Below, one piece after another: positions 8,874 through 51,176 of a stretch of 64,000 nucleotides of DNA (position 1 is the stretch's first letter; the number at the start of each line of letters is the position of its first letter). The translations under genes were made by a program, and so were the position numbers. The notes under the pieces were generated by a model. The model made no database searches, was not told the DNA's origin, and saw nothing but the letters and a program-made list of their open reading frames with translations. Source of the stretch: Deltaproteobacteria bacterium (GTDB taxonomy: Bacteria > Bdellovibrionota_C > UBA2361 > JAFLCA01); the NCBI GenBank assembly GCA_017302875.1, contig JAFLCA010000002.1:1118-65117 (forward strand), written 5' to 3'.

Positions 8874-8930
8874 CGCGACGCTTCCGCACGCACCGTACCG
8901 CGGCATAGCGCGGAAGATCTGGGATACGCC

Positions 8931-15716: not shown

Positions 15717-15827
15717 AAATTCCAGCCCGTTACGGCTAGTGGTTGCGCGCAAGGGGCAGCGTTGCAATGCTGATGCGCTTCGACAATAATCAGCCCTCAG
15801 TCTGAATTTCTCTTTCGAGTGTACATC

Positions 15828-16325
15828 ATGAAGCTAAGCTCTATCCTTGTTACCGGACTTGTTCTCCTTTCATCCGCCGTTGCGCAGGCCGACTATCGTG
15901 TTGCCACGGTCGATGTAAATCGCATTCTCAATGAAACGAAGGAAGCCAAGACGAAGAAGAAGGAGCTTGATGACATCACGCTAAAGGCGAAGGCCAAGAT
16001 CGAAGAGAAGCGCAAAGTACTAAAGGCTACTGAAGATAAACTTAAGGCAGCTTCTGTGTCTCCCGAATCCAAAGAGGCAGAAAAGTTTCGAACTGACGCA
16101 CGCGAGTTTGCGCGCTTCGTTAAAGACACCGATGAAGATATCAAAAAGCAATTCATGGTAACGAACAAAGCCTTGACCGACAAAGCCCTTGATATCGTTA
16201 AGAAATACGCAGAACAACACAACATTGATTTGGTTCTCGATAAAGGCGAGAAAGGCCGTGGCCCGGTCCTGTTCGGAGATGACTCTGCCGATATCACCGA
16301 CGACATCATTAAGTCCCTTAACTAA
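15828..16325 (+). CDS. skp: OmpH/Skp-family periplasmic chaperone
   Basis: Signal peptide MKLSSILVTGLVLLSSAVAQA, then VATVDVNRILNETKEAKTKKKELDD and a Lys/Glu-rich coiled coil, about 165 aa. ATG at 15828 is preferred over the upstream GTG at 15819. Confidence 0.8.
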   Translation: MKLSSILVTGLVLLSSAVAQADYRVATVDVNRILNETKEAKTKKKELDDITLKAKAKIEEKRKVLKATEDKLKAASVSPESKEAEKFRTDAREFARFVKDTDEDIKKQFMVTNKALTDKALDIVKKYAEQHNIDLVLDKGEKGRGPVLFGDDSADITDDIIKSLN

Positions 16326-16355
16326 CAAACACTGCGCCGCTGTTAGTACTTCCGT

Positions 16356-17183: not shown

Positions 17184-17247
17184 AATAGCCCCATTCTACC
17201 CATCTCAAGCAATTGCCGGACTTTGCCGATCCATTAGGTGAGGGTTT

Positions 17248-17511
17248 ATGCAGATTATAACCATAGATGACGTCGACTTTCCGCGCTTACTGAGCGCTTT
17301 CGGTGATGCGAAGTCTGTTGGCCGTTACTGGCGTAACGGACAAGTGCAGGTCGTGCGCATTACCGAGCACTTTGTATTCGTGGTTAGCGAGAACATTCCG
17401 GGGAAAATCGCTATCAAACCGGTGCGCTCAATGAATGACGCCGAAACTCTTGGCCGCCAGCTGCTGACACGGGAAGAGCAACGCGGGAATAGGGTCGAAC
17501 TACAGCGCTAG
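17248..17511 (+). CDS. Hypothetical small protein (87 aa)
   Basis: ORF only; converges on rpiA with a 4-nt overlap. Confidence 0.35.
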   Translation: MQIITIDDVDFPRLLSAFGDAKSVGRYWRNGQVQVVRITEHFVFVVSENIPGKIAIKPVRSMNDAETLGRQLLTREEQRGNRVELQR

Positions 17512-23855: not shown

Positions 23856-23859
23856 CGAG

Positions 23860-27698: not shown

Positions 27699-27716
27699 TC
27701 GCTATATCTGAGATAA

Positions 27717-29486: not shown

Positions 29487-29498
29487 CATCAGACGCTT

Positions 29499-31142: not shown

Positions 31143-31233
31143 GAATCCACCCCCAAGTTTCGATCAGGACATAAAGCAAGCCGCCCGGGGCTCCAGATAG
31201 TTCTTTTTTCCGAGAAAAAGAGTTAATCTTTCC

Positions 31234-35295: not shown

Positions 35296-35301
35296 AAGGC
35301 A

Positions 35302-37350
35302 ATGGAAATTTGCCTGACTGTCGCTCTCATCGCTCTCGCACTTTGCGCCGTAGGAATAGCTCCTTTTGAAGGAACGCTTGCCCTTCTATTGCTGACTCCT
35401 ATTTGCGCCTACCCTTTGGGTCTGCTTTTACCGGCGGGGAAACCACTCTACGTTATCTCCTTCGCCTTCCTTCTGACCTTGTTGATGGTTCTTAGCAAAG
35501 GCCGCTCGCTATATAGCCGCGATGAAGCCCTACAAGCACTTCTTCCCGTCGGCTATTTTGTAGTTTGCTTCTCAGTTTTTTCCTATCTCTGCCACTCGTG
35601 GCCGGACTTCTATCAACTAGGCGAACGTCTGCGTGATTTTGCCGTGCTGAGCGCGGTTATCAAATCTCCAATTGAAGCGCGTGAACCCTGGCTTTCGGGG
35701 TTTCCGCTAAATTACTACCTATATTGGTATCGCTTTGGGCATATGCTCAGCAGCGTGCTGAAGCTTCCAATCTGGGAAGTCTATCATCAGCTGCAAGCCT
35801 TCACCTTCGCGCTCTTTAGCACCTCGATTTTCGTGCTCTTTAGAAAGTATGCGAAGTTTCCAGTCTGGGGGGCGCTATTCACCGCCGCGATTATTACGCT
35901 TGGCTCAAACGCCGAGGGAATTTTGTACTTTATCAAGAACGACCCCAATTGGTGGGGGCCGTCACGAGTCATTCCGGGCGCAATCAACGAGTTCCCGGCT
36001 TGGTCGTTCCTTCTGGGCGACGTACACCCACACTATTTAAATCTGGGGCTAATTCCTTTTCTCTTGGGTATTTTCCTGTGCGTCTCACGCTCCACGCTGC
36101 AAATCGGCGCAAAATTATACTCTATTGTGGGCATACTGGCAGTTGGCACGTTGTGGTCGTACAACGCGAACGCTTGGGAACTTCCCGTATGGCTGGGTTT
36201 AAGCGCCGCGATCTTTACGAGCTCGCTTGCCGTTCTGCCTGTCGCTGAACTCAGAAAGATAGAGCGCCGAGACTTCCTGTCACTCCCGGCAGCTCTTATT
36301 GTCGCGCTCGTTGTCTACCTTGCTTACTCGCTGGCCCTTTCCTCTCTCAACATCGTTCCGGCGCACATGCCGTTAAAACTCGTCGAGATGCCGGTACCTC
36401 GTACCAGCGCCTTAGATTTGCTGCGACATTGGGGAATCCCGCTGGCAATCATCATTTTGAGCAGCATTCTTTCTTTACGAAAAATCGAATGGATGGTGAT
36501 TGCCGCGCTGGCATTTGGATTAGCTTTCGCCACTCGCAGCGCCATCGTTGTTCTGACTCTTACCTTCGTACTTGCCGCGTTGATAGCTTGGAATTCTCGC
36601 AAGGAGCCCGGCAGCGCAAGCTTAAGCAACTGCGTCTTCACGTCGATGGGGCTCCTCGCGCTCTTGCTCATTATATTTCCCGAATTGGCGTTCCTCGACG
36701 ACTCCTACGGCGGAGAAAACGAGCGAATGAACACCATTTTCAAAGCCTATAGCGCAGCTTGGTTTCTGCTGCACGGCTTTGCATTTTATTTGCTGGCGAA
36801 ATTGCCGAGAGCTTGGCTCAATCGCTTCCCGGACTTTCCGTTATTGCCCTTGGTGTTGGTGGTAGGAATTTTATGGATTGGATTTTTCTTCCGCACTATC
36901 AAACTCAGAAAGTCGAGCGAATTTGGCGTACAGCCTGCGGCACAAGGTCTTAGCGACATTGAAAGACGCTTCCCAGGTTCTGCAACCACGATACAGATTC
37001 TCACGAGAAGCCGTCCGGGAATTGTGCTGGAAGCGCAGGGCCCCGCCTATGACTTCACCTCACACATCGCGACTCTTTCGAGCCAGACTGCATACCTAGG
37101 CTGGGCAAACCACATCAATTTGCTTTTACAGGTATACCCGGAAGTTTCTCGCCGCGAGAAAATTACAGAAGATATGTACCGTGAAGCTGATTGCGCCAAG
37201 AAAAAGACTCTGGCGACTCAGGAACGCATCAACTACATAGTGCTGGGCCCGCTTGAAAAGCGCGCCTTCCCAGAAGCAAATGCAGAGCAATTTTCCTGCT
37301 TCAAGGAACTGATCAGGTCTAAAGAGTATCTGGTCTTCGAGAACCAATAG
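35302..37350 (+). CDS. DUF2298 / 'YYY'-domain polytopic membrane protein
   Basis: 682 aa. GFPLNYYLYWYRFGH, INEFPAWSFLLGDVHPHY, MNTIFKAYSAAW and YLGWANH align with the C-terminal half of 31234-35295. Confidence 0.65.
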   Translation: MEICLTVALIALALCAVGIAPFEGTLALLLLTPICAYPLGLLLPAGKPLYVISFAFLLTLLMVLSKGRSLYSRDEALQALLPVGYFVVCFSVFSYLCHSWPDFYQLGERLRDFAVLSAVIKSPIEAREPWLSGFPLNYYLYWYRFGHMLSSVLKLPIWEVYHQLQAFTFALFSTSIFVLFRKYAKFPVWGALFTAAIITLGSNAEGILYFIKNDPNWWGPSRVIPGAINEFPAWSFLLGDVHPHYLNLGLIPFLLGIFLCVSRSTLQIGAKLYSIVGILAVGTLWSYNANAWELPVWLGLSAAIFTSSLAVLPVAELRKIERRDFLSLPAALIVALVVYLAYSLALSSLNIVPAHMPLKLVEMPVPRTSALDLLRHWGIPLAIIILSSILSLRKIEWMVIAALAFGLAFATRSAIVVLTLTFVLAALIAWNSRKEPGSASLSNCVFTSMGLLALLLIIFPELAFLDDSYGGENERMNTIFKAYSAAWFLLHGFAFYLLAKLPRAWLNRFPDFPLLPLVLVVGILWIGFFFRTIKLRKSSEFGVQPAAQGLSDIERRFPGSATTIQILTRSRPGIVLEAQGPAYDFTSHIATLSSQTAYLGWANHINLLLQVYPEVSRREKITEDMYREADCAKKKTLATQERINYIVLGPLEKRAFPEANAEQFSCFKELIRSKEYLVFENQ

Positions 37351-37380
37351 TCCGCTAACGTTCCCGCATACGCGAAGAAC

Positions 37381-39366
37381 TTACTGCGGCTTCTGCGCCT
37401 CAGGATTTGCGTTCGCCTTGGGATTCACGAGGAACCATGCGTACGAATATCCGACCGGGCTCCACGGAGTATGATTCAAGGAATAGCCAAGAAATCGCTT
37501 CAGGGTCATCAGTCGCAAATCTGGAACCCACCAACCTCGTAAATTAATGCGCTGCGCGCGGAACTGCTCAGGCGCTGGCGGTTCATTGTCTTTCCAGTCA
37601 CGAATAATGTAGTCGAACTTCGCATACTCTTCGGCAGGAGCCTGGAATTTGTATTGCGGGATATCTCGCATATACCATGTCATTGGCCAGGTTGATTCTC
37701 CCATCACCAGGAGCTGAGGTTTGTACCCTTTTGTCTCCGTGGCAATCTCTTCCTTGATGGTGTTGGCGATGCCGTGAATTTCTTGAGTGGTATGAACCTG
37801 GCTTATGTACTCACGTGCTTCACCGGCATAGACATAGTTCGTCAAAATGGCCGCACGGGTCGTATAGATACAGAACAGCGCCAGCAAGAACCACTTCAAG
37901 TTCACGGTTCCGAGCATTCCAGCCGCGCGAAAGCTCATCCCCAACACGATCAGAAAAACTCCGCTCGCCACCCAGAAGAGATTCTCAGGGCTGCCTTCAT
38001 CAGCTGTGAAAAGAACGCCCAAGACAAGGACAATGATGCCCGTGCTGCGAATCAGTCGGGCCACCGAAAAATGCTGCCAATCGCTCACAGGAAAACGGCG
38101 GAAATAATCATCAAAATAGAGCGCTAGGTAGATCAAACCTGCAATGAAGGGGTACGTGGTCAGCCACGGAACCTTCTCCCCGAGATAACTGTACGTGCAA
38201 AAGTTTGCTAAGAACAAATAGCCAAAAAAGGCTAAGCGTCGATTGCGTTCAAGCAGGTGCACGACCGTCGTTAACACCGCCTGCGGCACTAAAATTAAAA
38301 AGCCGCACACGTCGTAGGCGTCCTTGAGCTTCAACAATCCGAGATACTTGTAGTCAGCGATCGTCTTGTCACTGAGGTATAGAGAAACGACCAAAGCCAT
38401 GACGAAAATAACAACGCCGCATACCTGCACCCAGCGCGCAGCGCTTCGGTAGAATGTCCAAAGGTACAAGCCAAAGGCGACAATGAAGGCCAATTCGTAC
38501 CAGGACAGCATATAGAAATGAAAAAGCCAGGGCCCGGTAATGCGATCGATATTGTGCTGATGCATCCAGTAGCCCAGGCTCTCGCGGTACAAACCGTCCA
38601 AGATACCCTGCATGTAACGGAATCCTGCACTGTAAAGATAGCAGTAAATGAAAACTCCCAAGCAGACAGCATTTAGCACCGCAAATGAGTGCGTCTTTAT
38701 GTGTCGAGCCATCTGCGCAAAGAGTGGGTTCTTATCTCCAAGCGCCTGAGCAGCGAAGCAATATTCAAACACCAAATAGCCGAACAAGATCGCGACCGTC
38801 ACATAGGCATTCTCTTTAATGCAGAACTGTAAGGTCAGTGCGACAAAAAAGATCAGCGCCTTACGACCGGGAGCGGCCAAGGTCGCGCCGTACAGCATTG
38901 CGACCATGCAGGCGATGATAAGCGTGTCCTCGCGTAAGAATCGGGACCAGTAAATTAGGGTCGGAGACAAAGCAACAGCCGCCGTAAGTGCCAATACTGC
39001 AAATCGCGAAAAGTAGTGCCGAAACAGGAAAGGAACAAAGATCAGACAAGAGCCAACGAAGTTAATCGGAACTCGCGAAGCCCAGTCTCCCTGACCAAGC
39101 GTGTTGTACACGATGCGATACAAATTATAGAGAAAGGGCCCGTGGAGGAGCGCTTGATAGCGATAGTAGTTCTGATCCGGGAAATCAAAAAAATATTTCC
39201 CATACATGCCATGCAAGGACTCATCGTGATGAAAGGGACGCATGTCCAGGGCGAACCAGCGCAGCAGCAAGCCCCCGGCAATCAGAAGGACAAACACGCC
39301 CCATTCCAGTGGGGAGAAGAAATCACGCGCACGCGACTCAGGGGGAGCGGTCTGCTCTAGACTCAT
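37381..39366 (-). CDS. TIGR03663-like / GT39-like polytopic membrane glycosyltransferase
   Basis: 661 aa. LLLRWFALDMRPFHHDESLHGMYGKYFF...LLHGPFLY...ALSPTLIYWSRFLRED pattern. Confidence 0.6.
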   Translation of the reverse strand: MSLEQTAPPESRARDFFSPLEWGVFVLLIAGGLLLRWFALDMRPFHHDESLHGMYGKYFFDFPDQNYYRYQALLHGPFLYNLYRIVYNTLGQGDWASRVPINFVGSCLIFVPFLFRHYFSRFAVLALTAAVALSPTLIYWSRFLREDTLIIACMVAMLYGATLAAPGRKALIFFVALTLQFCIKENAYVTVAILFGYLVFEYCFAAQALGDKNPLFAQMARHIKTHSFAVLNAVCLGVFIYCYLYSAGFRYMQGILDGLYRESLGYWMHQHNIDRITGPWLFHFYMLSWYELAFIVAFGLYLWTFYRSAARWVQVCGVVIFVMALVVSLYLSDKTIADYKYLGLLKLKDAYDVCGFLILVPQAVLTTVVHLLERNRRLAFFGYLFLANFCTYSYLGEKVPWLTTYPFIAGLIYLALYFDDYFRRFPVSDWQHFSVARLIRSTGIIVLVLGVLFTADEGSPENLFWVASGVFLIVLGMSFRAAGMLGTVNLKWFLLALFCIYTTRAAILTNYVYAGEAREYISQVHTTQEIHGIANTIKEEIATETKGYKPQLLVMGESTWPMTWYMRDIPQYKFQAPAEEYAKFDYIIRDWKDNEPPAPEQFRAQRINLRGWWVPDLRLMTLKRFLGYSLNHTPWSPVGYSYAWFLVNPKANANPEAQKPQ

Positions 39367-39414
39367 GGCTTTCTTTAAGAGTTCAGGTAAACGCTATAGA
39401 CTATGAGGTATAGG

Positions 39415-40776
39415 CTATACTTTGAAGGTGCTCTCCTCAACACCCTTCAGCATATAGTCAGCCCATTCCACGCCCTGCATAAAGGAGTGATCCTGATTGG
39501 CGACCTCGTATTTCCAGCCACCGAATCGGCCTCGCGAGTAAACGCCCAGCTTTTGAAGGGCCGGCATCACGTCCTTAATAATGGCATCACGCTCCAATGA
39601 CGGGGTCGGATACCCGTATGGAGCATGGAAGGTCCACGTCGATACGATCTGATCTTTGTCGGAAATGAGCTTGGTATTACGCAACCCGGAAATGGTCTCC
39701 TCCAGAAGCGTTTTGTGGTTCACTGGTTTTGCCGGAGACTCGCTGGTTTCAGTCATCAGAGAAAACTGCGTCTTTATATCAGGAACATTGAGAGGACTGT
39801 ATTTGGAAAACAAAGTGACGCGGTAGAAGGGACAGTCGCTTTCCGGAAAGTACATCCAGCATTTGCTTTCAAGTTCAGGCTTGGGCTGTCCGCGTAGTCC
39901 CACGCCAACAATATTTGTTGAAGAATACTTCAGACCACCTGCGCGTTGCTTTAGGGCATCCGGTATTTCACTAACCAGCCCTGCGCAAATATCAAGCGGC
40001 ATGGTTGAGAGCAGATGCTCATACTGCACGCTGCTTCCATCCGAGAGCAGCACCGAGCGCTCTTGAGCATTAATTCTAGTGACGGTGCAGTTCGTGCGGG
40101 TCTTATCAGCTCCTACCATCTTGCCGACGGCATGCCAGATTGCACCAGTTCCTCCCTGCTTGGGAAAACGAAATTTGTTGTTCGGCCCCCAGGAAACATC
40201 ATCGCGCTCAAGTATTACATTCTCGAGCACTCGGTTCAGATCAACAACTGAAACTCGCTCCCCGATCCAATGATAGGCCAGCTCAGTAAGCGGATAGGCC
40301 CATACCTTGAAGTTATAGGGGTTCATGAACTCTTCGCCGATTCCGGCACCAAAGATCGACTGCGTCCATTCCGCAAAGTTCGCGGGCTTACGGGCAAGTG
40401 GATTCTTGGTGATTTCAATGATGCCCTTGAGGCACTTCCACACGGATTCTTTAGGCAGATAGCGAATGTTATTTTGGAAGGGATAGGGCACGAAGCGATT
40501 CTTTATCCATACCCAAGACTCTCGTTCATGCTCGAGCCAGCCGTCCTTGCCGAGCGATAAATCCATGACGTCATCGAAATACTTGTAGTGCGAGAACTGC
40601 ACGTGCCCGCCGATATCCCACCAAAATCCGGCATCATCTTTAAAGCTCGTGGCTAGCCCACCAACCCAAGGGTTTTTCTCCAGCAGTAAATAGTCCTGCT
40701 CGCCGAGATCTTTGAGACGATAGGCAGCACCAAGCCCTGTCGGGCCGGCACCAAGGATGAGGTATTTTACTTTCAT
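39415..40776 (-). CDS. glf: UDP-galactopyranose mutase, eukaryote-type (long form)
   Basis: 453 aa with FAD motif ILGAGPTGLGAAYRL. Shared blocks include GGHVQFSHYKYFDD, VPYPFQNNI, PYNFKVWAYP, WIGERV and WGPNNKFRFPKQGGTGAIW. Further blocks are CWMYFPESDCPFYRVTLFSKYSP, YGYPTPSLERD and SRGRFGGWKYEVANQDHSFMQGVE. These match my recollection of fungal/protozoan UGM sequences. Confidence 0.7.
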   Translation of the reverse strand: MKVKYLILGAGPTGLGAAYRLKDLGEQDYLLLEKNPWVGGLATSFKDDAGFWWDIGGHVQFSHYKYFDDVMDLSLGKDGWLEHERESWVWIKNRFVPYPFQNNIRYLPKESVWKCLKGIIEITKNPLARKPANFAEWTQSIFGAGIGEEFMNPYNFKVWAYPLTELAYHWIGERVSVVDLNRVLENVILERDDVSWGPNNKFRFPKQGGTGAIWHAVGKMVGADKTRTNCTVTRINAQERSVLLSDGSSVQYEHLLSTMPLDICAGLVSEIPDALKQRAGGLKYSSTNIVGVGLRGQPKPELESKCWMYFPESDCPFYRVTLFSKYSPLNVPDIKTQFSLMTETSESPAKPVNHKTLLEETISGLRNTKLISDKDQIVSTWTFHAPYGYPTPSLERDAIIKDVMPALQKLGVYSRGRFGGWKYEVANQDHSFMQGVEWADYMLKGVEESTFKV

Positions 40777-40789
40777 AAGCGCGTTCTTA

Positions 40790-41566
40790 TTAGCGTCCGC
40801 GCAAATTTAGAGCAGCACGCTGGGCTTTAATATCCTTGAGTGCGGAGGGAAGCGCCAATCGAAAATCGATTAATTCTCGCACGCAGCGTAAGCAGGCTTT
40901 TATAAGTCGCCAGCGAACAATAGAGACAGTTCCCGTTTCGCGTTCGCGATGCGTTATTGGAATAGCCATCAAGTCTTGACCGTCGCGCGCGGCCAGAACT
41001 GCCAAGAAAATGTTCGGTGCAAAAACTGTTGGGTTAATATGCCCAAGCAAAATCTTTAAGTAGTCACCCTGAATGAGCCTGAATGGAATATTGGAGTCCC
41101 GCAGCCAGGAGCCAAAGAGCACAAAATTTAAAACGCGCAGAATGCGAGTGATAACGAGTCGATGGAAAGCATCGTGGCGGTCACGACGAAACCCTAAGAT
41201 AAAATTTGACTGCGAGCGCTTATTCCAAAGTATCGCGAGCTCTGCACTATCGAACTGATCGTCGCTGTCGACATGGAAAACCCATTGCGCACCAAGCTCA
41301 ACAGCCTTGTCGTAGGCTGTCCGTAAGGCCTTACCATGCCCGCCGTTAGTCTGATGCACCACCACAAGTTTCGGGTAGGTTTTAGCCGCCTCATCAAGCA
41401 TGGCGCCCGTACGATCTTTTGAACCGTCGTTGACGACGATTAACAGTCCCGATTCGAGACCAAGGCCGTCGATGGCGCTGATCCATTTTTTGACTACGTC
41501 TTTAATGCAGCCCTCTTCGTTGTAGGCCGGCATAACGATGCAAAGTTCAGGGCGCGAAGTCGGCAT
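40790..41566 (-). CDS. Glycosyltransferase family 2, Dpm1/Ppm1-like (candidate polyprenyl-phosphate hexosyltransferase)
   Basis: 258 aa. CIVMPAYNEEGCI...VVNDGSKDRT...GGHGKALRTAY...HVDSDDQ GT-A motifs. The polyprenyl-phosphate acceptor is inferred from its position next to the GT-C genes. Confidence 0.6.
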   Translation of the reverse strand: MPTSRPELCIVMPAYNEEGCIKDVVKKWISAIDGLGLESGLLIVVNDGSKDRTGAMLDEAAKTYPKLVVVHQTNGGHGKALRTAYDKAVELGAQWVFHVDSDDQFDSAELAILWNKRSQSNFILGFRRDRHDAFHRLVITRILRVLNFVLFGSWLRDSNIPFRLIQGDYLKILLGHINPTVFAPNIFLAVLAARDGQDLMAIPITHRERETGTVSIVRWRLIKACLRCVRELIDFRLALPSALKDIKAQRAALNLRGR

Positions 41567-41812
41567 GAGGTACCTGGAATTTAAGGAACTGTATTAACAG
41601 CGGTTTTTTCTAAAGCTAGCCGGTTTAGGCAGTAACTTCAATAAGTTAAATAACTTAGTCGTCAGCTTTTAGATGCGGCTAAACGACAAACTCCAGACTC
41701 AAATTAACGCAATAATATTAGTGGGTTAAAGATTATTTGAAGCATTGTTATATTTCCTGCTGATAGATAAGTGGGGGACAGGGTGTGAAGTGTGCAATCG
41801 CGAGAGATTCGT

Positions 41813-42358
41813 ATGCGTGTGTCATCAAAATCCCCCCTTCGAGAACGCGGCGGCGTTATCACCGAGTGCGTGCTGGTAATCCCCGTCATGCTGGTTCTCT
41901 TTACCGGCCTTACTGAGCTGGGTCGAACCTTCTCCCAGATAAACTGGGTCGCCAATATTTCCTACGAAGTTGCTATGGTCGGCGCCAGCGTATCCGAGAC
42001 TGCCGGTGGCGCGCTTGCAATGGACGGGCGCTATGCTCAGCTTAGTGCGATTCCGTACTACAAAGTCACCTTGCCGAGCGATCCAACCTCCAAGGTCTAC
42101 AATCAGACTGACCTACACGTCAGCGGGCAACCACCTCGAAGCGTTGAAGTTGCTATCCATGCGACACTACCCACGTTGCTGTCACATGTATCACCCACCT
42201 TTGACGTACGCGCGACCGCGCCGATTTTGGTGCTTTCGAATGTGCTCCCGGGGGGACTCAGCACCTTTAGCAATCCAAATCCGCTTTATGACTGCTGCGG
42301 CCGCGAGTATTCGGGCGCGCCCATTGATACGTGCTTGAATCCCCCGCCCGCTTGCTAG
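41813..42358 (+). CDS. TadE-like pseudopilin-type protein (cassette A, gene 1)
   Basis: MRVSSKSPLRERG|GVITECVLVIPVMLVLFTGLTELGR is a TadE-type N-terminus with Glu at +5 after the Gly. The upstream GTG at 41792 is an alternative start. The C-terminus is Cys/Pro-rich. Confidence 0.65.
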   Translation: MRVSSKSPLRERGGVITECVLVIPVMLVLFTGLTELGRTFSQINWVANISYEVAMVGASVSETAGGALAMDGRYAQLSAIPYYKVTLPSDPTSKVYNQTDLHVSGQPPRSVEVAIHATLPTLLSHVSPTFDVRATAPILVLSNVLPGGLSTFSNPNPLYDCCGREYSGAPIDTCLNPPPAC

Positions 42359-42502
42359 TTGAACGCTAAGATACTCCATTGAGGAAAGGCGACACGCGCA
42401 ATAGAATCAATGGATTAAGCGGCCCGCGATCTTTTTAAGCCCTTTTTGATAGAACTGTGTCGTACGCTGGTGCGGCGCTTTGGACTTTAAACAAGTCGGT
42501 AC

Positions 42503-43900
42503 ATGCGTTTGTTTTCTCGTAGAATTTTCAGCAGCAAGCTTCCCGCCCAAGACGGTGCCTCATTTATTGAAGCGGCGCTGACGTTGCCAATATTTTTGAT
42601 GGTGCTTCTCTTCACTATCGACATGGCGCGCTTCTTCTTTATTTGGGCAGTGATTAATTTTGCCGCCCACCACGCGGTCGATTACGCTGCGAAGATCGAA
42701 GTCGAGGCGCGAACAGATGAGGCAAGCTGCTTCTCGCAACCGGCAAGCTGCACCGATTATCGAAATCGAATTTTATCTCCAACCGGCGTACTCGCCAAAG
42801 CCGAGAGGTACGCGAAATATGCCGCAACCGAAGGCCCCAGTGCTTCCCAACTTGTCCCTTTTAATCACTATTGGAACCCGGACTACACGCAAGCACCGCC
42901 TGCTGGCCACTATGGATCAGGCCTTGTTGCGAGCGGCAACATTCGATTGGCAGGATTTTTACGCCCTGGCGAGTACATTCGCCGAGAAGACGGGAGCGGG
43001 CAGTTTATAGAGCATCCGACCCGTAAGCCTTTAACGGATCACTTGTATTGGCCTGGAATCAGCGAGAACTGGGCGACTATTTTAGAGAACAATCCGCTGC
43101 TCGTGCACATCGAAGTGCGCTTCAAGGCAGTAACACCGTTCATCCCTGAGTTGCGCATCGTTGCCAATCAGATTGCGTATCGCCGCAGCCGTACGCCGGG
43201 AATCGGCGGGCCGATTACTCCAATTCCATCGAACACCCCAACAGCGACAGCAACGGCGACGGCATCCAACACGTTCACGCCGCGACCTTCAGAGACAGCA
43301 ACCGCGACCGCTTCTCCGACGGAGACGACCACTCCGACGCAGACGGCAACCATGACACCAACGGGCACCGAGACCCCAACGGCAACTCAAACTCCCACGG
43401 GAACCGCTACTCCAACTTTTAGCCCGACTGGAACGGTAACCCCAACGCCATCGCTATCACCAACGCCGACGCAGACGCCAACATTTACGGCAACGCCAAC
43501 AGCTACCCCAACTCCGACACCGACGGGTACGCCAACGCCGACACCAACGTATACGACTAGCCCCACACCAAGCATCACTCCGACCGAATCGCCAACGGGA
43601 ACCGTAACTCCAACGGCCACTCAATCTCCCACGGCCACACAGTCGCCAACTCCATCGTTAACGCCGAGTGAAACACCGACAGCCACGGCAACACCGACTC
43701 ACACGGCCACACGCACGCCTACAGCAACCCCAACTCCGAGCCTCACGGCGACTGCAACGCCCACGCATACGGCAACTATAACACCAACTCCTACTCATAC
43801 ACCGACGGTTCATTGTGGTGATTGCGTAACGAATGGCTGCCAGCAGGACTGTCGTGAATACTGTTGTTCAAGTGGCTGCGGCGATTTGTGCGGAGGATAA
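42503..43900 (+). CDS. TadE-like N-terminus + globular domain + Thr/Pro-rich stalk + Cys-rich C-terminal tail (cassette A, gene 2)
   Basis: 465 aa. ...PAQDG|[28 protein letters not shown] at the N-terminus. Residues about 231-436 are almost entirely T/P/A/S. The last 28 aa are [28 protein letters not shown]. Confidence 0.75.
43193..43810 (+). repeat. Degenerate in-frame ACN/CCN repeat region encoding the Thr/Pro stalk
   Basis: Runs of TPTATxTPTxT peptide units, seen in the nucleotide sequence as repeated acg/aca/acc-cca/ccg/ccc codons. The mirror V/G-rich ORFs on the opposite strand are artefacts. Confidence 0.85.
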
Positions 43901-43958
43901 GTTGATGCAGACTTTTGACCTGCCTCACATTGCGAATAGTCTCTAAGAGGTTTTAGCT

Positions 43959-46184
43959 ATGCGCCAAGAAAAAGGTCTCTATATCGTATTCTTCGCTCTC
44001 CTGCTTTTCGTGCTGCTCGGATTAGTGGCGCTGGCGCTCGGCCTCGGCTACATCGGCACTAATAAGACTCGCCTGCAAAATGGCGTCAACTTAGCCGCTC
44101 TCGCGGCGCTTGAGAAATTCGCCGGTTTACCTCAGAGCGATTCGTACCTAGTGCGCGCCGACAAAGCCCGCGATCGGGCGAGTGAGATTTTTGCAGCAAA
44201 TATTTTACCCGGTGTAGAGCACCCCTTGGGAGAACTTGGCCACCATGGCGCAGCCGGGCCCGGTGGAACAATTACCCTTGGCAACTGGTATCAGAAGAAA
44301 CCAAATCCCGTCGACGATCCCTGCACGGGAAGCTACCCCTGCTTCGTCGCGAACCCCGATCCAAGCGGTTCCGTGCCTAACAACCAACCAATGAATGCAG
44401 TGCGTATTGAAGCCCACAATCAAAGCAACAATCCGCTGCTTTTCAGACTTGGAAGATTTTTAGGAAAAGATAGCTTCATCCTGTCGTCGAGCGCCACAGC
44501 GACGGTCGTTCCACGCTGTACCGCGTACTTGATGGACGTTAGCGATTCATCTTACTTCGAAACTCATCCAACGTTGCCGATTGGATCAAGCCAGGTAAAT
44601 TCCTGCATTACTCCTGGCAGTGTTCCCCCGGCCTGCCCGGACCCTAGCTGCCTTCCCGGATGTTTAGCCGGAGAACCTGCATGTTATGGCGGCTGTAATC
44701 CTTACAAAACAGCGAATTTAAGCGTCACACCGATTAATTTTGGTCTTGGCGCATATCGGTATAGCCCTCAGTACACGCCAACTCATTTGGAATGCGCAGC
44801 TTCGACGAACTACGATCTGGGCAACCAACTTTCCCGTCAGACAGTGTATTGGTGTAACTCGCCTCATATTGGCGCCCCTGATGGAGCACGTCCCGGCGTT
44901 CCACCTTCCTCAGGCATCTTCCGTCACTATCAGTCAGACTATGAACTAGAAGATTCACCGCTTCCAGGAGGCGGCGTTGGTCAAATCTGGGTTGATAAAC
45001 TGTATGTCGCAGGGGCAACGGCGGCAGACCCAGTGTACGATGGTCCGCAACCCTTCACTCGGAATTTTTTGGCCTTCAACGCCGGGCTGCGACAAGTTCA
45101 GTCCACGACAGTTGGCGGAGATCTTTCCTATATCATGGCTTTCACCGGACAGCCGCGCAGTTCAGTTCCAGCCACGGGATTAACTTCGGATTTGGGATTC
45201 CTGATTCAATTAACCAATCTCGACAACCGTGGAAAAAGAGATTGGCAAGGCGTTCCTGTAACTACAGAAATCCACCCCAATTTTATTGATTTCGGCTGGG
45301 CACCGTTTCCGGGCGAAGGATTCGACTCAACCAGCGCGATTGGAAATGCTGTGTATTTCGCAGCCGAGCGCCTTCACTCCAGCTGCCCGTCGCAGTCGCG
45401 CAAAACTATTTTGCTGGCATCTGACGGACAAGCCAACACTCACTTCGGCGCGATTCCGGAACCGCAGGGCCTAAACGGATACAACAACTATGTCGCAGCC
45501 GTAAATCAACTTCTTAATACTTCGATCCCGGTACTCGGCGGCGGCCCCAATAAACCGCCGATTCTACAGATGCTCAAAGAGTATGAAATTTCATTCTCGA
45601 TGATTATGGACGGGTTCCATATTGCACCGAACTTTCTCAACATAGCGAGCGGTGAGTGCGGAGCGGCGTCGACTTGGACACCGGGTTCCGGCTTCGGAAA
45701 TGACGACCCGAAGTGCTATTTTTCCTTTCAGGAAGGTTACGCGCACGGCTTTGGCGGCAAACGTTCCCCTTCGCCCCTGTTTGACTGGGAAAGCTACGAC
45801 CCCTCTGGAACACCGACCGATCCAGCGACCGCGTACGACAACGCCGGAAGAATTCCTGGCTGGTCATTCGGAGATCCGATTGGGGTATGGAGCGACGTTG
45901 CGCTGGAGACCGGCGGGTATTTCTGCCCACTTCTGGCAGTTGCGCCAGTCGGGCAGTATGTCGACTTTTATGGCGATCGCGGCGGAGCTGCTTGTGATGC
46001 TCCCTGTCCAGGCGGGGTAAATTGCAGCCCCTGTGTACTACGCAGCGCGGCACGAAATCCCAATCCAGGTCAAAACATTCAGAAGTTTGCACCGCAGTAC
46101 ACTAGGAAAAGCGAGCAGGCAGCGCAGTGCGCGCGTCAGGCAGTTGGACTCAATCCATTTACCCTGGTCGAGAAAGACAATTAA
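43959..46184 (+). CDS. TadG-like protein with N-terminal hydrophobic helix and vWA domain (cassette A, gene 3)
   Basis: 741 aa. MRQEKGLYIVFFALLLFVLLGLVALALGLGYIG matches the Tad/TadG N-terminal pattern. MIDAS DVSDS at 44535-44549, later LLASDGQAN. Good AAGAGG Shine-Dalgarno. Confidence 0.7.
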   Translation: MRQEKGLYIVFFALLLFVLLGLVALALGLGYIGTNKTRLQNGVNLAALAALEKFAGLPQSDSYLVRADKARDRASEIFAANILPGVEHPLGELGHHGAAGPGGTITLGNWYQKKPNPVDDPCTGSYPCFVANPDPSGSVPNNQPMNAVRIEAHNQSNNPLLFRLGRFLGKDSFILSSSATATVVPRCTAYLMDVSDSSYFETHPTLPIGSSQVNSCITPGSVPPACPDPSCLPGCLAGEPACYGGCNPYKTANLSVTPINFGLGAYRYSPQYTPTHLECAASTNYDLGNQLSRQTVYWCNSPHIGAPDGARPGVPPSSGIFRHYQSDYELEDSPLPGGGVGQIWVDKLYVAGATAADPVYDGPQPFTRNFLAFNAGLRQVQSTTVGGDLSYIMAFTGQPRSSVPATGLTSDLGFLIQLTNLDNRGKRDWQGVPVTTEIHPNFIDFGWAPFPGEGFDSTSAIGNAVYFAAERLHSSCPSQSRKTILLASDGQANTHFGAIPEPQGLNGYNNYVAAVNQLLNTSIPVLGGGPNKPPILQMLKEYEISFSMIMDGFHIAPNFLNIASGECGAASTWTPGSGFGNDDPKCYFSFQEGYAHGFGGKRSPSPLFDWESYDPSGTPTDPATAYDNAGRIPGWSFGDPIGVWSDVALETGGYFCPLLAVAPVGQYVDFYGDRGGAACDAPCPGGVNCSPCVLRSAARNPNPGQNIQKFAPQYTRKSEQAAQCARQAVGLNPFTLVEKDN

Positions 46185-46414
46185 ATCGGGCGTTCCCTAG
46201 CGTGCGTTTACGCATCAAAACCTCTTACCGAGGGAGCTGAACGGCTCTGCGCAGGGTGAAAATCTACGAGTTTTTCCTAGTATGGCTACGATGTACTTGG
46301 ATTTCTCGCCAGTTACCGCACTTCACCTGAAGCAAAAGTAAACTACCCCCTCTAAAGAGCCGATAGGTGACATAGGAGCTTCATGCTGGGGCTTCTTAAA
46401 CATATTGTGAAATC

Positions 46415-47230
46415 ATGCGTGACTACACTTCATTGAGTCCTCGTTCCCTCAAGCGAGCTAACATGAAAGGTTCAGTCCTGCTGGAGTTCGCTATCGTCGT
46501 GCCCCTTCTGGTGGTCTTTTTTCTGGGCATCTCCGGAATTGGACAGCTACTTGGGCATGTAACTTGGATCTCACAAACGACCTACGCTGCGGCTCTCTTC
46601 GCAGCCGACGTGCCGCAGCCTGACGGGCCAGCTAAAGTTCAGCAAGCTACCGAGCGTTTAAGCGAAGCTCAAAATCGAGGTCAAGTCAGCGGTGATTGGA
46701 ATGCGCCAGTCTACACCGTAGGACAGATCACAGGCAAACCCATTGTAAGCGTAAGCGTCCCTGCGAATGTTTCGCCTCTCGTAAGCGCCATGTTTTCATC
46801 CAGTATCGGTGTGAGCGTAGCAGCTCCCTACCTTGTACCGAGCCAAGCAGCCTTCGCTGGGTTTAACGATTTTGCCAATCCCTCTGGCATCGTTACCTGC
46901 TATGCAGCCTCTTGTAACCCGATCGCACCGTATAATCCCGGGATTAGGAAAATAACCACCTTACCGGGTGAGACGAATTACGCTTACTATAATCCCACGA
47001 ACGAAGAGTCCACGAGAGCTTTTGAAACCTTTATGTCCACCATGGGCGGCCTGGATCGAAGTAGTCCGACTTACATAGAGGATGCTGCTGCTACGTACGA
47101 GAAGCTTATGTCAGCTTTTGAGGGTGCTATTTCCAACGATCCCTCGCTAGCCAAAGCGCTGACTCGATTGGACCCGATGACGACTGAATCGAAAAAAAGC
47201 ACCCGTACAGAGTATACGATTCTAGATTAG
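46415..47230 (+). CDS. TadE-like pseudopilin-type protein (cassette B, gene 1)
   Basis: 271 aa. ...SLKRANMKG|SVLLEFAIVVPLLVVFFLGISGIGQ TadE-type N-terminus with Glu at +5. Confidence 0.65.
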   Translation: MRDYTSLSPRSLKRANMKGSVLLEFAIVVPLLVVFFLGISGIGQLLGHVTWISQTTYAAALFAADVPQPDGPAKVQQATERLSEAQNRGQVSGDWNAPVYTVGQITGKPIVSVSVPANVSPLVSAMFSSSIGVSVAAPYLVPSQAAFAGFNDFANPSGIVTCYAASCNPIAPYNPGIRKITTLPGETNYAYYNPTNEESTRAFETFMSTMGGLDRSSPTYIEDAAATYEKLMSAFEGAISNDPSLAKALTRLDPMTTESKKSTRTEYTILD

Positions 47231-47339
47231 AACCTAAGGGCTTGGCCGCACTGACATTTACCGGGGTGATAGGGGCGTGCTAAGGTAAGTATTCTGTATA
47301 AGAATGCGTGCTGATTAAAAGACTTACCCTGGGGAAAGT

Positions 47340-48818
47340 TTGAGCTTCCCGTTTCGTAAAATTTTCCGATTGCCGCCTGCCTTGGCCCGCTGGGGTTCCC
47401 AGCGCTCAGAGCTTGGCGCCTCCATTCTGGAAGCGGCTATCTCCCTGCCGATCTTCTTCTTATTTATTTTCTTCTTGATCGATCTCGCCCGGTACTTTTT
47501 CATCTACGCGATTCTGAACTATGCGGCGTACAGCGGAGTGGATCTCGCTTCAAAACTCGAAGTTGAAGCCAATACAACTGTCACCGGCTGTGCCGCAGAA
47601 TCGACCCCCTGTGCTCGTTATGGAAATTCAGTCGCCTCCATTTTAGATCGCACTACACGCCTCGCGTATTTAGTTGCGAGCCCCTCAACCGTCGCAAGCG
47701 GAGCTCGACTACAGTCATTCGCTCACTACGTTCCTTCGATGTACGACAGTGGGCAGAACAATTCGGGCCTTAGTCCGTTTTTAACGGTACCCTTTTCAAA
47801 AGATGCTGCTTTTCTTCGTCCGGGAGAAGTCGTTTGTCGTAATGGAACCTGCGATTCGCCTAACCAGGTTCAGCACAACTTTCGAGAGTACGGAACCGGA
47901 ATTGGAAAAGGCTGGCCTTCAGACAATGAAAACTGGGCGTCGATTCTAGAAAGCTCCCCCTTAGAGATGCGACTTGAAGCAGAGTTTACGCCGGTTACTC
48001 CATTCTTCCCACACCTTAGAATTCACGCCGTGCAGTACGCCTACCGCAGCGTGAAGAAGGCGGGCCGCCCCTATAGCTTCGTCTCGGCACCCACAAATGC
48101 GCCTTCAGCAACTTCGACGATGACACCGACCTCCACCCCGGTGCCGCCTTCACCGACACCGCCCGTCACGCCTACGGCGACCCTCTCTCCGACGACGACG
48201 GTAACTCCGACAGCCACCAGCAGTCCGACGGCAACAACGAGTCCGACCGCGACCATTACGCCGACTAATAGCCCAACAGCCACGCAGACCCCGACTGCAA
48301 CGAATTCGCCGACGGCCACAAACAGCCCGACGGCGACGAGCACTCCGACTTTGAGCCCAACTGCGACTAGAAGCCCGACGCCAACTCAGACCCCCACGGC
48401 GACGAACAGTCCAACACCAACTGCGACACCTTCAAATTCGCCAACATTTACGTACTCGCCAACTGCAACACACACGCCAACGGCGACTAGTACGGCAACG
48501 CCAACCGTCACTCCGACTTTCACCCCGACGGCTACGTCGTCGCCAACAGCAACACAGAGCCCGACGCCAACGTTATCGCCAACCCCAACAGCTACGGGAA
48601 CTGTTACTCCGACAGCGACACTCTCGCCGACGGCTACCATTACCCCAACGGCAACTTCAACGCCGACAGCGACACAGCGTCCTGAGTGCGCCAACTGCGC
48701 TTGCGGAAACACCGGGTCATGCTGCAGCCAGGCGGGGATGATGTATGTGTGTAACGTACTTTGTGGTGGCATTCCGCTGTGCGGTCAAGCGAATTGCTGC
48801 CCAGGAACGGGCGGATAG
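47340..48818 (+). CDS. TadE-like N-terminus + globular domain + Thr/Pro-rich stalk + Cys-rich tail (cassette B, gene 2); paralog of 42503-43900
   Basis: 492 aa with TTG start. ...SELG|[28 protein letters not shown] at the N-terminus. Residues about 250-447 are T/P/S/A-rich. The tail is [43 protein letters not shown]. Confidence 0.75.
48087..48680 (+). repeat. Degenerate in-frame ACN/CCN repeat region encoding the Thr/Pro stalk
   Basis: SPTATxSPTAT / [11 protein letters not shown] peptide units. Opposite-strand V/G-rich ORFs are artefacts. Confidence 0.85.
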
Positions 48819-48866
48819 TGCGCAAATTGCTTGGCATAGGATAGGATTTTTATAGTAAGAATTTTT

Positions 48867-51113
48867 ATGAAAATCTCGGCGAATCACTCCAAGAATGAGA
48901 AAGAACGGGGACTATATCTAATCCTCGTGGCTTTTTTCATTTTCGTTCTTGTTGCCCTGTGCGGCCTGGTGATTGGTCTTGGGTTTCTCTCTACCAATCG
49001 CTCTCGCCTTCAGAACATTGCTAATGTCAGCTCTATAGCGGCACTCGACGGCTTCATCCAAGCTCGCAATCCTTCTACAGGGGATCCCTTGGCGTACGAT
49101 GTTCGAAAGACTGTCGCGATGAACCGCGCCAATGAACTAATTGTGGCGAATAAGAAACTACCGGGAGTCCGGTTTGATCTTGGGGAAGTTGGACTGGCCC
49201 CTGCAGGAGGCAATGGCGGTAAACTAACAGTCGGAATGTGGTATCCGGAAATACCCGCTACCGGAACACCGTGCGGAGCCAATGCCTCCGACTACCCTTG
49301 CTTCCGGGAGAATCCGGTCGTGCCCACAGGAACGCCGATAGCCAATGCGGTGAGACTCGAAGTATTCAGTCAACCGACAAATCCTCTAATTGCTCCCTTC
49401 GCATCCTTTTTTGGTCAACATGGAATTACTCTTAACACGACCAGCATTGCCCGCGTCGTTCAACGTTGCGTAGTGTTCCTGCTAGACGTTTCACTATCCA
49501 CAGTTCAGGAGACTCATTTATACGGCAGAAATGCGCCTGCCCCGCTGCCTCCCGATCCGGCATGCATTCCTCCGGAGCTCGGTGGAGCCTGCACGCCGTT
49601 GATGCAGGTGACGCTCGCTCCGACGCCGGCACTGGTTATCAGCGAACCGCAGCCGCCATCGCTTTTTGCCTATCGCGTAAGTGCGCTTGGCCCGCTTGCA
49701 TCGCGCACTCCGCCGCTGACTCCGCCACCATTTCCAACGCCGAACCCGTGTCAGAATCTGACGAGCTATTGGGCGGCCAATTCCGGGGAAGATCTGCTCT
49801 ATTTTTGTAATATGAAGACTTCGCGTACGGGATTTATGTCCCCGCCGTATGTTCAGCATTATCGCTCAGATTACCGGATCCACCCCTCGATATTTGGCGA
49901 CGTCTTCATTGATAAATACGAGGAGAATATCAACACGTACGTTGGTCCAGAACCGCTTAGCCGATTCTTCCTTTCCTTTAACGCGGGGCTGCGTGCGGTT
50001 AATCAGGTGCGATCGCCTGGCGACAAGGCGCTGCTATACGTGTTTACGGGCAAAGCAGTCGGCACAGAGCCGCAATCCACGCCTCCAACCTACGAACTGA
50101 CCGAGAACCTAAATTCGCTTATTCAACTGACAAATATTTACAACCGTGGAACCATCGATCGAAACGGAGCCATCGTACACCCAGTCGTAACTCCGAACTT
50201 CGTATCACGCGGATTTTTCCCGATTCTTGCTTCGAGCGCTGACACCATTAGCACCACTACGAACTTAGGCCTGGCACTTTGGGACGCGATTGGAGCCCTC
50301 AGCAGCTGCCCGGACTCTGCTCGACGTTCCATCATCGTAGCCACAGACGGGATTCCGAGTTGTGGTTGGAATACACAAGGCAGCCTTAACGGCACCCCGC
50401 GTCCCGATCCCATTTTTGACTGCCCTCCACCGACGAACGGCGATTACTACACCAATTACCTTCAGGCAGAACAATCCATTCTTGGCCCCATCAAGGATGA
50501 ACTGGTCCGACGCGGCATTTCAGTGACTGCGCTGCTCGACGCTGAAAACATTCAACCAAATTTTATAAATGCAACGATTCCTCCCGGAGCCGGCACACCG
50601 ACAGGAGACTTTGTGGACCCTGAAGATGCCGCTCAGAACGGATTCTGCGCCGGAGTTCCAACTCCGATTGGAGGCGGCGCCGCACCTTGCGATAAACCAT
50701 TCTTCCTCTCTAGCCCTGTAATTCCTGACGAGGCACTGGGCCCGTACAATGCCTGGGTGGCAGGCGGACCCTCAGCCCCCGTGGACTACGATCATTTCGC
50801 ATTCAAGTACAGCGACACCCCAAATTTAGGAGTCAAATTCCGCCGTCCCAACGCACTATGGGGACAGCTTGCACTCGACACCCAAGGCGTCATTTGCCCG
50901 TTATTGCCAGAGTGTCCTCCACAGGCGTACGCTCCGGGAATTCCTCCAAATCCGCCGCAGATATTGCCGACCTGGAGACAAGGTATGTCCGTTATGGACT
51001 GCTCTCCAGCCAAACAGAGTAAGGCGCAACAAGCGGTGAACTGCGTGCTTGCAGCGATTGGCGTGAACCCATATCAGAACGTCGAAGAAATTCCTCCAAC
51101 CGTTGCTCCATAA
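48867..51113 (+). CDS. TadG-like protein with vWA domain (cassette B, gene 3); paralog of 43959-46184
   Basis: 748 aa. KERGLYLILVAFFIFVLVALCGLVIGLGFLS at the N-terminus. MIDAS DVSLS at 49485-49499, later IVATDGIPS. Colinear with 43959-46184 over the whole length. Confidence 0.7.
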   Translation: MKISANHSKNEKERGLYLILVAFFIFVLVALCGLVIGLGFLSTNRSRLQNIANVSSIAALDGFIQARNPSTGDPLAYDVRKTVAMNRANELIVANKKLPGVRFDLGEVGLAPAGGNGGKLTVGMWYPEIPATGTPCGANASDYPCFRENPVVPTGTPIANAVRLEVFSQPTNPLIAPFASFFGQHGITLNTTSIARVVQRCVVFLLDVSLSTVQETHLYGRNAPAPLPPDPACIPPELGGACTPLMQVTLAPTPALVISEPQPPSLFAYRVSALGPLASRTPPLTPPPFPTPNPCQNLTSYWAANSGEDLLYFCNMKTSRTGFMSPPYVQHYRSDYRIHPSIFGDVFIDKYEENINTYVGPEPLSRFFLSFNAGLRAVNQVRSPGDKALLYVFTGKAVGTEPQSTPPTYELTENLNSLIQLTNIYNRGTIDRNGAIVHPVVTPNFVSRGFFPILASSADTISTTTNLGLALWDAIGALSSCPDSARRSIIVATDGIPSCGWNTQGSLNGTPRPDPIFDCPPPTNGDYYTNYLQAEQSILGPIKDELVRRGISVTALLDAENIQPNFINATIPPGAGTPTGDFVDPEDAAQNGFCAGVPTPIGGGAAPCDKPFFLSSPVIPDEALGPYNAWVAGGPSAPVDYDHFAFKYSDTPNLGVKFRRPNALWGQLALDTQGVICPLLPECPPQAYAPGIPPNPPQILPTWRQGMSVMDCSPAKQSKAQQAVNCVLAAIGVNPYQNVEEIPPTVAP

Positions 51114-51114
51114 A

Positions 51115-51146
51115 GAAAGGGCTGACCAGTATTGGTCAGCCCTTTC
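51115..51146. terminator. Hairpin between convergent genes (probable bidirectional terminator)
   Basis: GAAAGGGCTGACCA-GTAT-TGGTCAGCCCTTTC forms a 14-bp perfect stem. It is flanked by short T-rich/A-rich runs and lies between the stop codons at 51113 (+) and 51177 (-). Confidence 0.65.
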
Positions 51147-51176
51147 TTGTAGAAGCCAGTTCCCGATCCGAGCGGA

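Follow-up and report, generated by a model that had tools for sequence, protein, structure and literature searches.

Tandem TadEFG-like cassettes with Thr/Pro-stalked minor pilins as probable alternative Tad pilus tips in a Bdellovibrionota genome

In Myxococcus xanthus, genetic analysis has shown that four paralogous kilL/kilM/kilN clusters, homologous to tadE/F/G, encode 'Tips' of the Kil Tad pilus that are interchangeable and in part redundant (Herrou et al. 2025, Nat Commun 16:4425, PMC12075869). Three of the four clusters are located apart from the kil machinery clusters, and priming of the pilus requires no more than any one of the Tips; AlphaFold predicts the Tips as helix-bundle heterotrimers with the large subunit distal, and Tip-like complexes have been predicted in Bdellovibrio bacteriovorus and in canonical TadEFG systems (PMC12075869). 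The TadG ortholog of Caulobacter crescentus, CpaL, combines a pilin-like module with a domain of the von Willebrand factor A (vWA) type that an insert interrupts; it carries an adhesion site that depends on metal ions (MIDAS) at D160/T162/S164/T470/D515 and a G/A-X4-F/E processing site, its structural analogs include SpaC, RrgA, and Mfa5, and it is predicted to form a pilus cap with CpaJ and CpaK (mBio 2025, PMC12607857). In B. bacteriovorus, the tad genes are scattered, the tip gene tadG stands alone, and the tad loci encode no TadV; PilD processes Flp, and TadG depletion impairs prey invasion (bioRxiv 10.64898/2026.07.08.737194). Here we analyzed a window of 64,000 nucleotides (of the 65,509 in contig JAFLCA010000002.1, Deltaproteobacteria bacterium, Bdellovibrionota_C), in which six consecutive plus-strand genes, g1 to g6, form two tandem copies of a three-gene cassette of TadE-, TadF-, and TadG-like minor pilins.

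We consider it probable, with considerable room for doubt, that each cassette encodes one Tad (type IVc) pilus priming/tip complex and that the two cassettes provide alternative tips, the machine and the peptidase being encoded elsewhere. Most likely, g1 and g4 are TadE/CpaJ/KilM-like, g2 and g5 are TadF/CpaK/KilL-like with a C-terminal extension, and g3 and g6 are TadG/CpaL/KilN-like. An earlier note on this DNA had proposed six plus-strand open reading frames (ORFs) in two copies of one three-gene unit, and all six were found:

g1, 41813..42358, plus strand: small TadE-like minor pilin, 181 aa from ATG 41813
g2, 42503..43900, plus strand: stalked TadE/TadF-like minor pilin, 465 aa
g3, 43959..46184, plus strand: TadG/CpaL-like large minor pilin, 741 aa
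Inter-cassette gap, 46185..46414, plus strand: 230 bp
g4, 46415..47230, plus strand: small TadE-like minor pilin, paralog of g1, 271 aa
g5, 47340..48818, plus strand: stalked TadE/TadF-like minor pilin, paralog of g2, 492 aa, TTG start
g6, 48867..51113, plus strand: TadG/CpaL-like large minor pilin, paralog of g3, 748 aa
Bidirectional terminator-like hairpin, 51113..51148, no strand: 16-bp perfect stem, 4-nt loop

Pfam searches confirmed the Tad-type identity of these proteins. Four matched the TadE family (PF07811, cut-off 22.9 bits), with 25.6 bits for g1 (E 1.3e-5), 34.0 bits for g2 (E 3.2e-8), 24.5 bits for g4 (E 3e-5), and 41.3 bits for g5 (E 1.7e-10). The large protein g3 matched the Tad family (PF13400) with 35.3 bits (E 1.5e-8; cut-off 22.3), and its match to Tad_C (PF09977) was borderline at 21.9 bits (E 3.6e-4; cut-off 22.1). 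At 19.2 bits, g6 stayed under the Tad cut-off; yet it is a full-length homolog of g3 (E 7e-84), and it reached E 1e-228 against the A1 profile. The g3-family profile also reached the TadG-annotated proteins P0185 (E 3e-7) and P0186 (E 2e-6) through N-terminal matches. NCBIfam returned no model for any of the six proteins.

All four TadE-like proteins carry a class-III signal consisting of a short polar leader, Gly at position -1, Glu at +5, and a hydrophobic helix. With the processing site written as an arrow, the leader of g1 ends in ...RERG↓GVITE, g2 has an 18-aa leader with G↓ASFIE, g4 has G↓SVLLE, and g5 has a 26-aa leader with G↓ASILE, in agreement with the earlier claim that four of the six proteins bear a G↓xxxxE site. 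These are the sole convincing class-III motifs in the window, the other three motif matches lying inside unrelated ORFs. Across seven loci, the site and its hydrophobic helix were present in all g1-type and in 10 of 11 g2-type proteins, the exception (L002a) having Ala at -1. The g3-type proteins retained Gly at -1 in 24 of 26 cases, and their +5 residue was always hydrophobic and never Glu (G↓LYIVF in g3, G↓LYLIL in g6).

The earlier note had assigned a vWA domain to the third gene of each unit. Pfam and NCBIfam were both silent on such a domain in g3 and g6, and a PDB sequence search with g3 gave nothing meaningful; structure prediction and residue conservation, however, support a vWA domain with a MIDAS, split by an insert, in both proteins. 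An AlphaFold2 model of g3, built from a 26-sequence family alignment (predicted local distance difference test, pLDDT, 84; predicted template modeling score 0.83), has a long N-terminal helix and a beta-rich head followed by an alternating alpha/beta domain. Its leading Foldseek matches in the PDB were vWA proteins (PitA, SpaC, RrgA, GBS104, and Mfa5, and also BatB, TFIIH p44, and CMG2), with probabilities up to 1.0, although E values were only 1e-3 to 3e-2 and template modeling (TM) scores to the target were at most 0.5. In the predicted layout of g3, the N-terminal helix is followed by a pilin-like head (residues 57-185), the first vWA strand (beta-1) with the MIDAS motif D193-x-S195-x-S197, a variable Cys-rich insert (201-325), the vWA core (363-550, with T419 and D489), and a C-terminal region; the corresponding elements of g6 are D207-V-S-L-S and IIVATDG at residue 489. 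Among the 26 family sequences, D193, T419, and D489 were invariant (26/26), and S195 and S197 were retained in 22 and 24, respectively. Conservation was lowest, and variation in length greatest (83-170 aa), in residues 201-325 directly after the MIDAS loop, a part that is rich in Cys and poorly predicted.

This layout matches that of CpaL point for point (pilin module, split vWA domain, and MIDAS), the processing site fits the G/A-X4-F/E pattern, and SpaC, RrgA, and Mfa5 are structural analogs of both; for CpaL, too, a tripartite tip complex with two small minor pilins is predicted. The two differ in the insert, which comprises two tandem beta-rich domains in CpaL and is Cys-rich and poorly predicted in g3. 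The cpaJKL genes also form a single set in a canonical cpa/tad system, and neither a stalk nor a Cys knot has been reported for CpaK. The best structural matches of g3 are tip adhesins of Gram-positive sortase pili (RrgA, SpaC, GBS104, and PitA), which likewise carry a MIDAS vWA domain with insertions and are displayed at the tip; those adhesins, however, are assembled covalently by sortase and lack a class-III signal peptide, and the likeness is structural only (Foldseek E about 1e-3, TM-score to target at most 0.5). The g3-type proteins contain 13 to 24 Cys each, a load consistent with the many disulfides predicted in the Myxococcus Tips. The window also encodes a disulfide-bond-forming VKOR-thioredoxin/DsbA fusion (22548-23993, minus strand), consistent with many Cys-rich exported proteins. 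In the related locus L009, a 779-aa protein with a canonical Pfam VWA/VWA_2 domain and a signal-peptide-like N-terminus is encoded 1.3 kb downstream of the cassette (14946-17285); it did not match the g3-family profile.

The middle genes encode the most distinctive subunits. In the g2-type architecture, a TadE N-terminus is followed by a globular domain (about 215 aa), a Thr/Pro stalk (166-317 aa), and a C-terminal Cys knot. The stalk of about 200 aa and the Cys-rich tail ascribed to the second gene could be measured in both copies: the globular domain of g2 extends to about residue 238, its stalk covers residues 239-437 (nt 43217-43813; 42% Thr, 21% Pro), and its tail covers residues 438-465 (nt 43814-43897; 28 aa with 8 Cys), whereas in g5 the stalk covers residues 240-449 (nt 48057-48686; 37% Thr, 21% Pro) and the tail covers residues 450-492 (nt 48687-48815; 43 aa with 10 Cys). 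Imperfect DNA repeats of 18 and 24 nt occur within the g2 stalk. The number of Cys in the terminal knot was even (6, 8, or 10) in all 11 g2-type orthologs examined. In the complete genome CP129486.1 (L007), the stalk of the g2-type protein (8473-9900) is interrupted by a further Cys-rich segment (...CNINNCAGPVNEANCSLCVSTGCGCAGG...CDKCVDAFEMVGCYTC...), which the protein has in addition to its terminal knot.

An exhaustive HMMER search of 1.84 billion cluster representatives with the g2/g5 N-terminal domain gave 416 matches at E <= 1e-3, 62 of them at E <= 1e-30. Among the best 150 matches, 52 had a Thr/Pro/Ser-rich stretch of at least 60 aa, mostly with 6-10 Cys in the last 45 residues. By contrast, the g2 N-terminal domain found no matches in a word-indexed protein database, not even the query itself. 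Opposite-strand ORFs of the 'VGVGV...' type in the stalk DNA were rejected as spurious, the plus frame running into the conserved Cys tail in 11 of 11 orthologs. Such ORFs were seen in the window (43217-43813 and 48057-48686), in L001 (14834-15421 and 19671-20264), and in L002 (3304-3891), and gene callers sometimes annotate them instead of, or over, the real gene. Because of these ORFs, and because g2-type proteins are seemingly missing from the word-indexed database, the family appears to be systematically under-annotated.

BLASTP comparison of the two cassettes showed that the three paralog pairs are colinear end to end and well diverged, with 27% identity for g1/g4 (E 1e-14), 42% for g2/g5 (E 8e-42, a value inflated by the low-complexity stalk, the N-terminal domains alone being 43% identical), and 31% for g3/g6 (E 7e-84). 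In a neighbor-joining tree, g3 grouped with the first-cassette proteins of L001 and L003, and g6 grouped with P0017 of L001 (56% identical). Since g3 and g6 fall into different orthologous clades shared with other genomes, the duplication is older than the species splits and has been maintained since. The low paralog identities (27-42%) together with closer orthologs in other genomes rule out an assembly artefact or a recent duplication, and alignments and tree thus agree with the old, diverged, colinear duplication that had been proposed.

In the closest relatives, the cassette occupies the same chromosomal site as in the window, with glycosyltransferase (GT) genes of the GT2 and GT-C types upstream and genes for transketolase, AhpC, an alpha/beta hydrolase, parE, and parC on the downstream side. 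Copy number varies at this site:

L005: one cassette
Window, L002, and L003: two cassettes each
L001: three cassettes, two of them inverted

A g2-type gene was always followed by a g3-family gene (L001-L003, L005, and L007-L011). In the five more distant members (L007-L011), a full-length g3-family gene lies directly after the g2-type gene (local hmmsearch E 1e-52 to 1e-191), and the DxSxS motif is retained at the equivalent position in nearly all of these proteins. L009 holds a complete single trio among genes for the penicillin-binding protein (PBP) PBP1a, a peptidyl-prolyl isomerase, and a Mur ligase. The cassette of L007 lies in a different neighborhood, with a g1-like TadE gene 5 kb upstream (1244-2005). 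All g3-family sequences came from metagenomic sources or metagenome-assembled genomes (MAGs), and the few named ones belong to Bdellovibrionota, Oligoflexia, or Bdellovibrionales; the taxonomic attribution of the family draws on these few records together with synteny. The count of 29-31 g3-family proteins is a lower bound and no measure of rarity; counts from the word-indexed database in general are lower bounds because neither g6 of the window nor any g2-type protein was recovered by the search.

The small pilins are variable as well. g1 has a pilin-like core with a Cys-containing C-terminus and aligns over its full length with its orthologs in L001, L003, and L005. g4 carries a C-terminal extension of about 100 aa (residues ~170-271), helical by eye, which it shares with the ortholog in the third cassette of L001 (21197-21985), whereas the small pilins of the first cassette lack the extension and end in a short Cys-rich tail instead; the small subunit is therefore also modular. 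In L002 (JGI contig Ga0172278_1390), the two g1-type pilins (1004-2470 and 7508-8545) have C-terminal Hint/bacterial-intein-like domains, two copies in the first and one in the second, each starting with Cys-Phe, which suggests autoproteolytic processing or ligation of a pilus-tip subunit. g1 and g4 of the window have no Hint domains.

At the boundaries of the block, ATG 41813 was a more plausible start for g1 than the alternative GTG 41792. The hairpin that had been reported at 51115 is real; it lies between g6 and the convergent transketolase gene, and its region folds with -36 kcal/mol over a 76-nt stretch. A consensus scan found 7 terminator-like sites inside the block versus 10.7 in shuffled sequence, i.e., no excess. 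The gap between the cassettes (46185-46414) contained neither a Flp-size ORF nor a consensus terminator, and no hidden Flp pilin gene was found in the intergenic gaps or in the whole window; the gap may hold a second promoter. In L002, a MarR-GNAT fusion gene (6287-7243) is located between the two cassettes and may act as a local regulator; it has no counterpart in the 230-bp gap of the window.

Directly upstream of the cassettes, a block of membrane glycosyltransferase-like genes occupies positions 25515-41566 and includes the following:

25515-27698: PMT_2
31234-35295: PMT/PMT_2 and DUF2298
35302-37350: DUF2298 / TIGR03662 chlor_Arch_YYY
37381-39366, minus strand: TIGR03663 Agl23-like (219 bits versus a cut-off of 126)
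39415-40776, minus strand: amine-oxidase-like flavoprotein
40790-41566, minus strand: GT2, polyprenyl-phosphate-sugar-synthase-like, divergent from g1

This gene set looks archaeal- or Chloroflexi-like. Only the closest relatives have such genes next to the cassette, namely L001, L003, and, judged by ORF sizes only, probably L005. The block could glycosylate the Thr/Pro stalks, a suggestion based on an adjacency confined to one closely related lineage.

If the cassettes work as pilus tips, a prepilin peptidase encoded elsewhere (a TadV-type enzyme, or PilD in a shared role as in B. bacteriovorus) would cleave the leaders of g1 and g2 at G↓xxxxE. The three N-terminal helices would then bundle in the inner membrane and nucleate polymerization of a Flp-type major pilin by a Tad/Kil-like machine elsewhere in the genome. 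The trimer would reach the distal tip with g3, by analogy, as the apical subunit; the lack of Glu at +5 in g3 fits this position, for which GspK of the type II secretion system (T2SS) provides the precedent. The tip would show the MIDAS vWA domain with its hypervariable insert beside the metal site, and g2 would contribute a flexible Thr/Pro tether, about 200 aa long, with a small disulfide knot at its end. The two cassettes, and the one to three in relatives, would represent alternative tips of differing binding specificity. Trimer formation, location at the tip, the partner machine, and ligand binding are inferred.

Several observations weigh against this interpretation. Pfam scans of every other sizeable ORF revealed no cpaF/tadA, tadB/C, rcpA/cpaC, tadV, or flp in the 64 kb, as the earlier note had stated for the adjacent machinery genes, and no Tad machinery was found within ±10 kb in ten related loci (nine of them independent of the window, some with flanks cut by contig ends); neither a Flp pilin gene nor a prepilin peptidase gene was found in the window or in the flanks examined. 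The cassettes thus lie outside the canonical setting of a tad/cpa operon, a setting that already fails for the Myxococcus Tips and for Bdellovibrio. The sole secretion ATPases near cassettes (L011 and L012) are of the PilB/GspE type and not of the CpaF type. An AlphaFold model of the g2 N-terminal domain, based on a two-sequence alignment, was poor (pLDDT 43), so that the pilin fold of g2 is putative beyond the N-terminal helix, and the trimer is drawn by analogy only. To our knowledge, no precedent is described for a pilus-tip subunit that bears a disordered stalk of about 200 aa, which would also have to pass through a secretin. The hidden Markov models (HMMs) tip1-4 match only Myxococcota (PMC12075869), and the cassette proteins probably do not belong to the tip1-4/kilLMN HMM families.

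The ATPases raise the question of whether the same priming/tip complex serves a PilB/GspE-powered filament, i.e., a type IVa pilus or a T2SS-like pseudopilus that displays or secretes the stalked and vWA proteins. Isolated ATPase genes lie 4 kb from the cassette in L011 (4267-5928, with genes for a response regulator and a GAF histidine kinase after it) and 2 kb from it in L012 (8466-10016, minus strand); in B. bacteriovorus, the processing of the Tad pilin by the type IVa peptidase PilD indicates that the systems share parts, and vWA tip proteins also occur in type IVa systems (PilY1, and PilB of S. sanguinis). However, Pfam places the N-termini specifically in the TadE and Tad families, the architecture of g3 is that of TadG/CpaL, and the ATPases are single genes, separated from the cassettes by unrelated genes, at only 2 of 10 independent loci. 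Several PilB/GspE-type ATPase paralogs are typical of Bdellovibrionota. We therefore regard a PilB/GspE-powered filament as improbable.

Two further explanations take the gene neighborhood as their starting point. The cassettes always lie among housekeeping or cell-envelope genes and never beside machinery, with GT-C glycosyltransferase genes as neighbors in the window, PBP1a and Mur ligase genes in L009, and a transpeptidase-domain PBP and MreBC genes in L008; together with the lack of Glu at +5 in g3, this would suit a membrane-anchored envelope complex that forms no filament, in which the N-terminal helices, cleaved or uncleaved, stay in the inner membrane, the stalk spans the periplasm as a spacer, and the ligand of the vWA domain belongs to the envelope or matrix. 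Such a complex seems unlikely, as g1 and g2 bear a strictly conserved class-III signal (G↓xxxxE), the hallmark of a filament subunit, the composition of the trio mirrors TadE/F/G, CpaJ/K/L, and KilM/L/N, and cassettes that occur as paralogs and have a hypervariable insert next to the MIDAS suit determinants of specificity exposed to the outside. The divergent GT2 gene next to g1, followed by the Agl23-like and PMT_2/DUF2298 GT-C genes, could instead mean that the cassette proteins are chiefly glycoprotein substrates of the adjacent polyprenyl-phosphate-sugar/GT-C cluster, for example in a glycosylated surface layer or matrix, with Tad-like N-termini serving only as export or anchor signals; Thr/Pro-rich linkers are classic O-glycosylation targets, and the adjacency recurs in the closest relatives. 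Yet it is confined to this 'transketolase-locus' lineage, where it may be mere inherited synteny, and it is not evident in L002 and absent in L007-L012, whose g2-type proteins mostly keep their stalks. This explanation, to which we assign a very small likelihood, is moreover compatible with the cassettes encoding pilus tips and does not replace that interpretation.

Pilus tips therefore remain our preferred interpretation, and the described systems resemble the locus to different degrees. Judged from their description, the Myxococcus Tips share with it three-gene clusters of a short, a C-terminally extended, and a large minor pilin, several paralogous clusters mostly away from the machinery, disulfide-rich proteins with variable distal domains, and an occurrence in predatory lineages. 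They differ in that the window copies are in tandem at one locus in one to three copies, that the large subunit of the window has a recognizable MIDAS vWA domain whereas the distal domain of KilN4 was reported to be without a PDB homolog, and that the middle subunit of the window carries the Thr/Pro stalk and Cys knot; the strings 'threonine' and 'glycosyl' occur 0 times in PMC12075869. The Tad system of B. bacteriovorus, likened by description, belongs to the same phylum; there, however, a single lone tadG is present, and neither a duplicated trio nor a stalked minor pilin has been described. The type IVa minor-pilin and PilY1 sets (three paralogous clusters in M. xanthus; fimU-pilVWXY1E in Pseudomonas aeruginosa) are also detached, sometimes multi-copy tip sets with a vWA adhesin or mechanosensor, but they comprise four or five type IVa minor pilins plus the non-pilin PilY1, from other Pfam families and for another machine, which makes the relation one of analogy and not of membership.

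The earlier note had held that a free-standing, duplicated cassette of this kind was undescribed. This is contradicted by the Myxococcus study (PMC12075869), the 2026 Bdellovibrio preprint, and the architecture of CpaL (PMC12607857): both TadEFG-like cassettes that are detached and multi-copy and a TadG of the pilin-vWA type are on record. A search of the literature turned up nothing relevant on Tad pseudopilins with a stalk or with glycosylation. What appears to be new in the searchable literature is the stalk and Cys-knot architecture of the middle subunit, the size of this essentially unannotated family, and the tandem arrangement of one to three copies at a fixed site.

A more far-reaching proposal, which we consider doubtful, is that the g2-type proteins are an undescribed class of 'tethered' type-IV-filament tip subunit. 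Their heavily O-glycosylated Thr/Pro tether, tens of nm long if extended, would end in a knot of 3-5 disulfides and act as a grappling line beside the MIDAS adhesin, glycosylated in this lineage by the adjacent archaeal-like polyprenyl-P-sugar/Agl23/GT-C system. Copy number (1-3), stalk length (166-317 aa), and the small-pilin add-ons (the Hint domains of L002 and the helical extension of g4) would diversify prey or surface specificity in uncultured Bdellovibrionota.

Low-complexity genes of the g2 type are handled poorly by gene callers and by at least one large protein index; annotation thus has a blind spot here, and the family is largely invisible in current databases. A biophysical question also follows, namely how a long, disordered, possibly glycosylated tail rides on, or threads with, a pilus tip. 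If the cassettes do encode interchangeable tips, the "adaptable tip" principle established in Myxococcus in 2025 would reach a second, largely uncultured phylum with predatory members. The family, with at least 416 sequence clusters, would then supply natural variants for studying target recognition by Tad pili, combining MIDAS adhesins that bear hypervariable inserts with varied stalks that end in knots.

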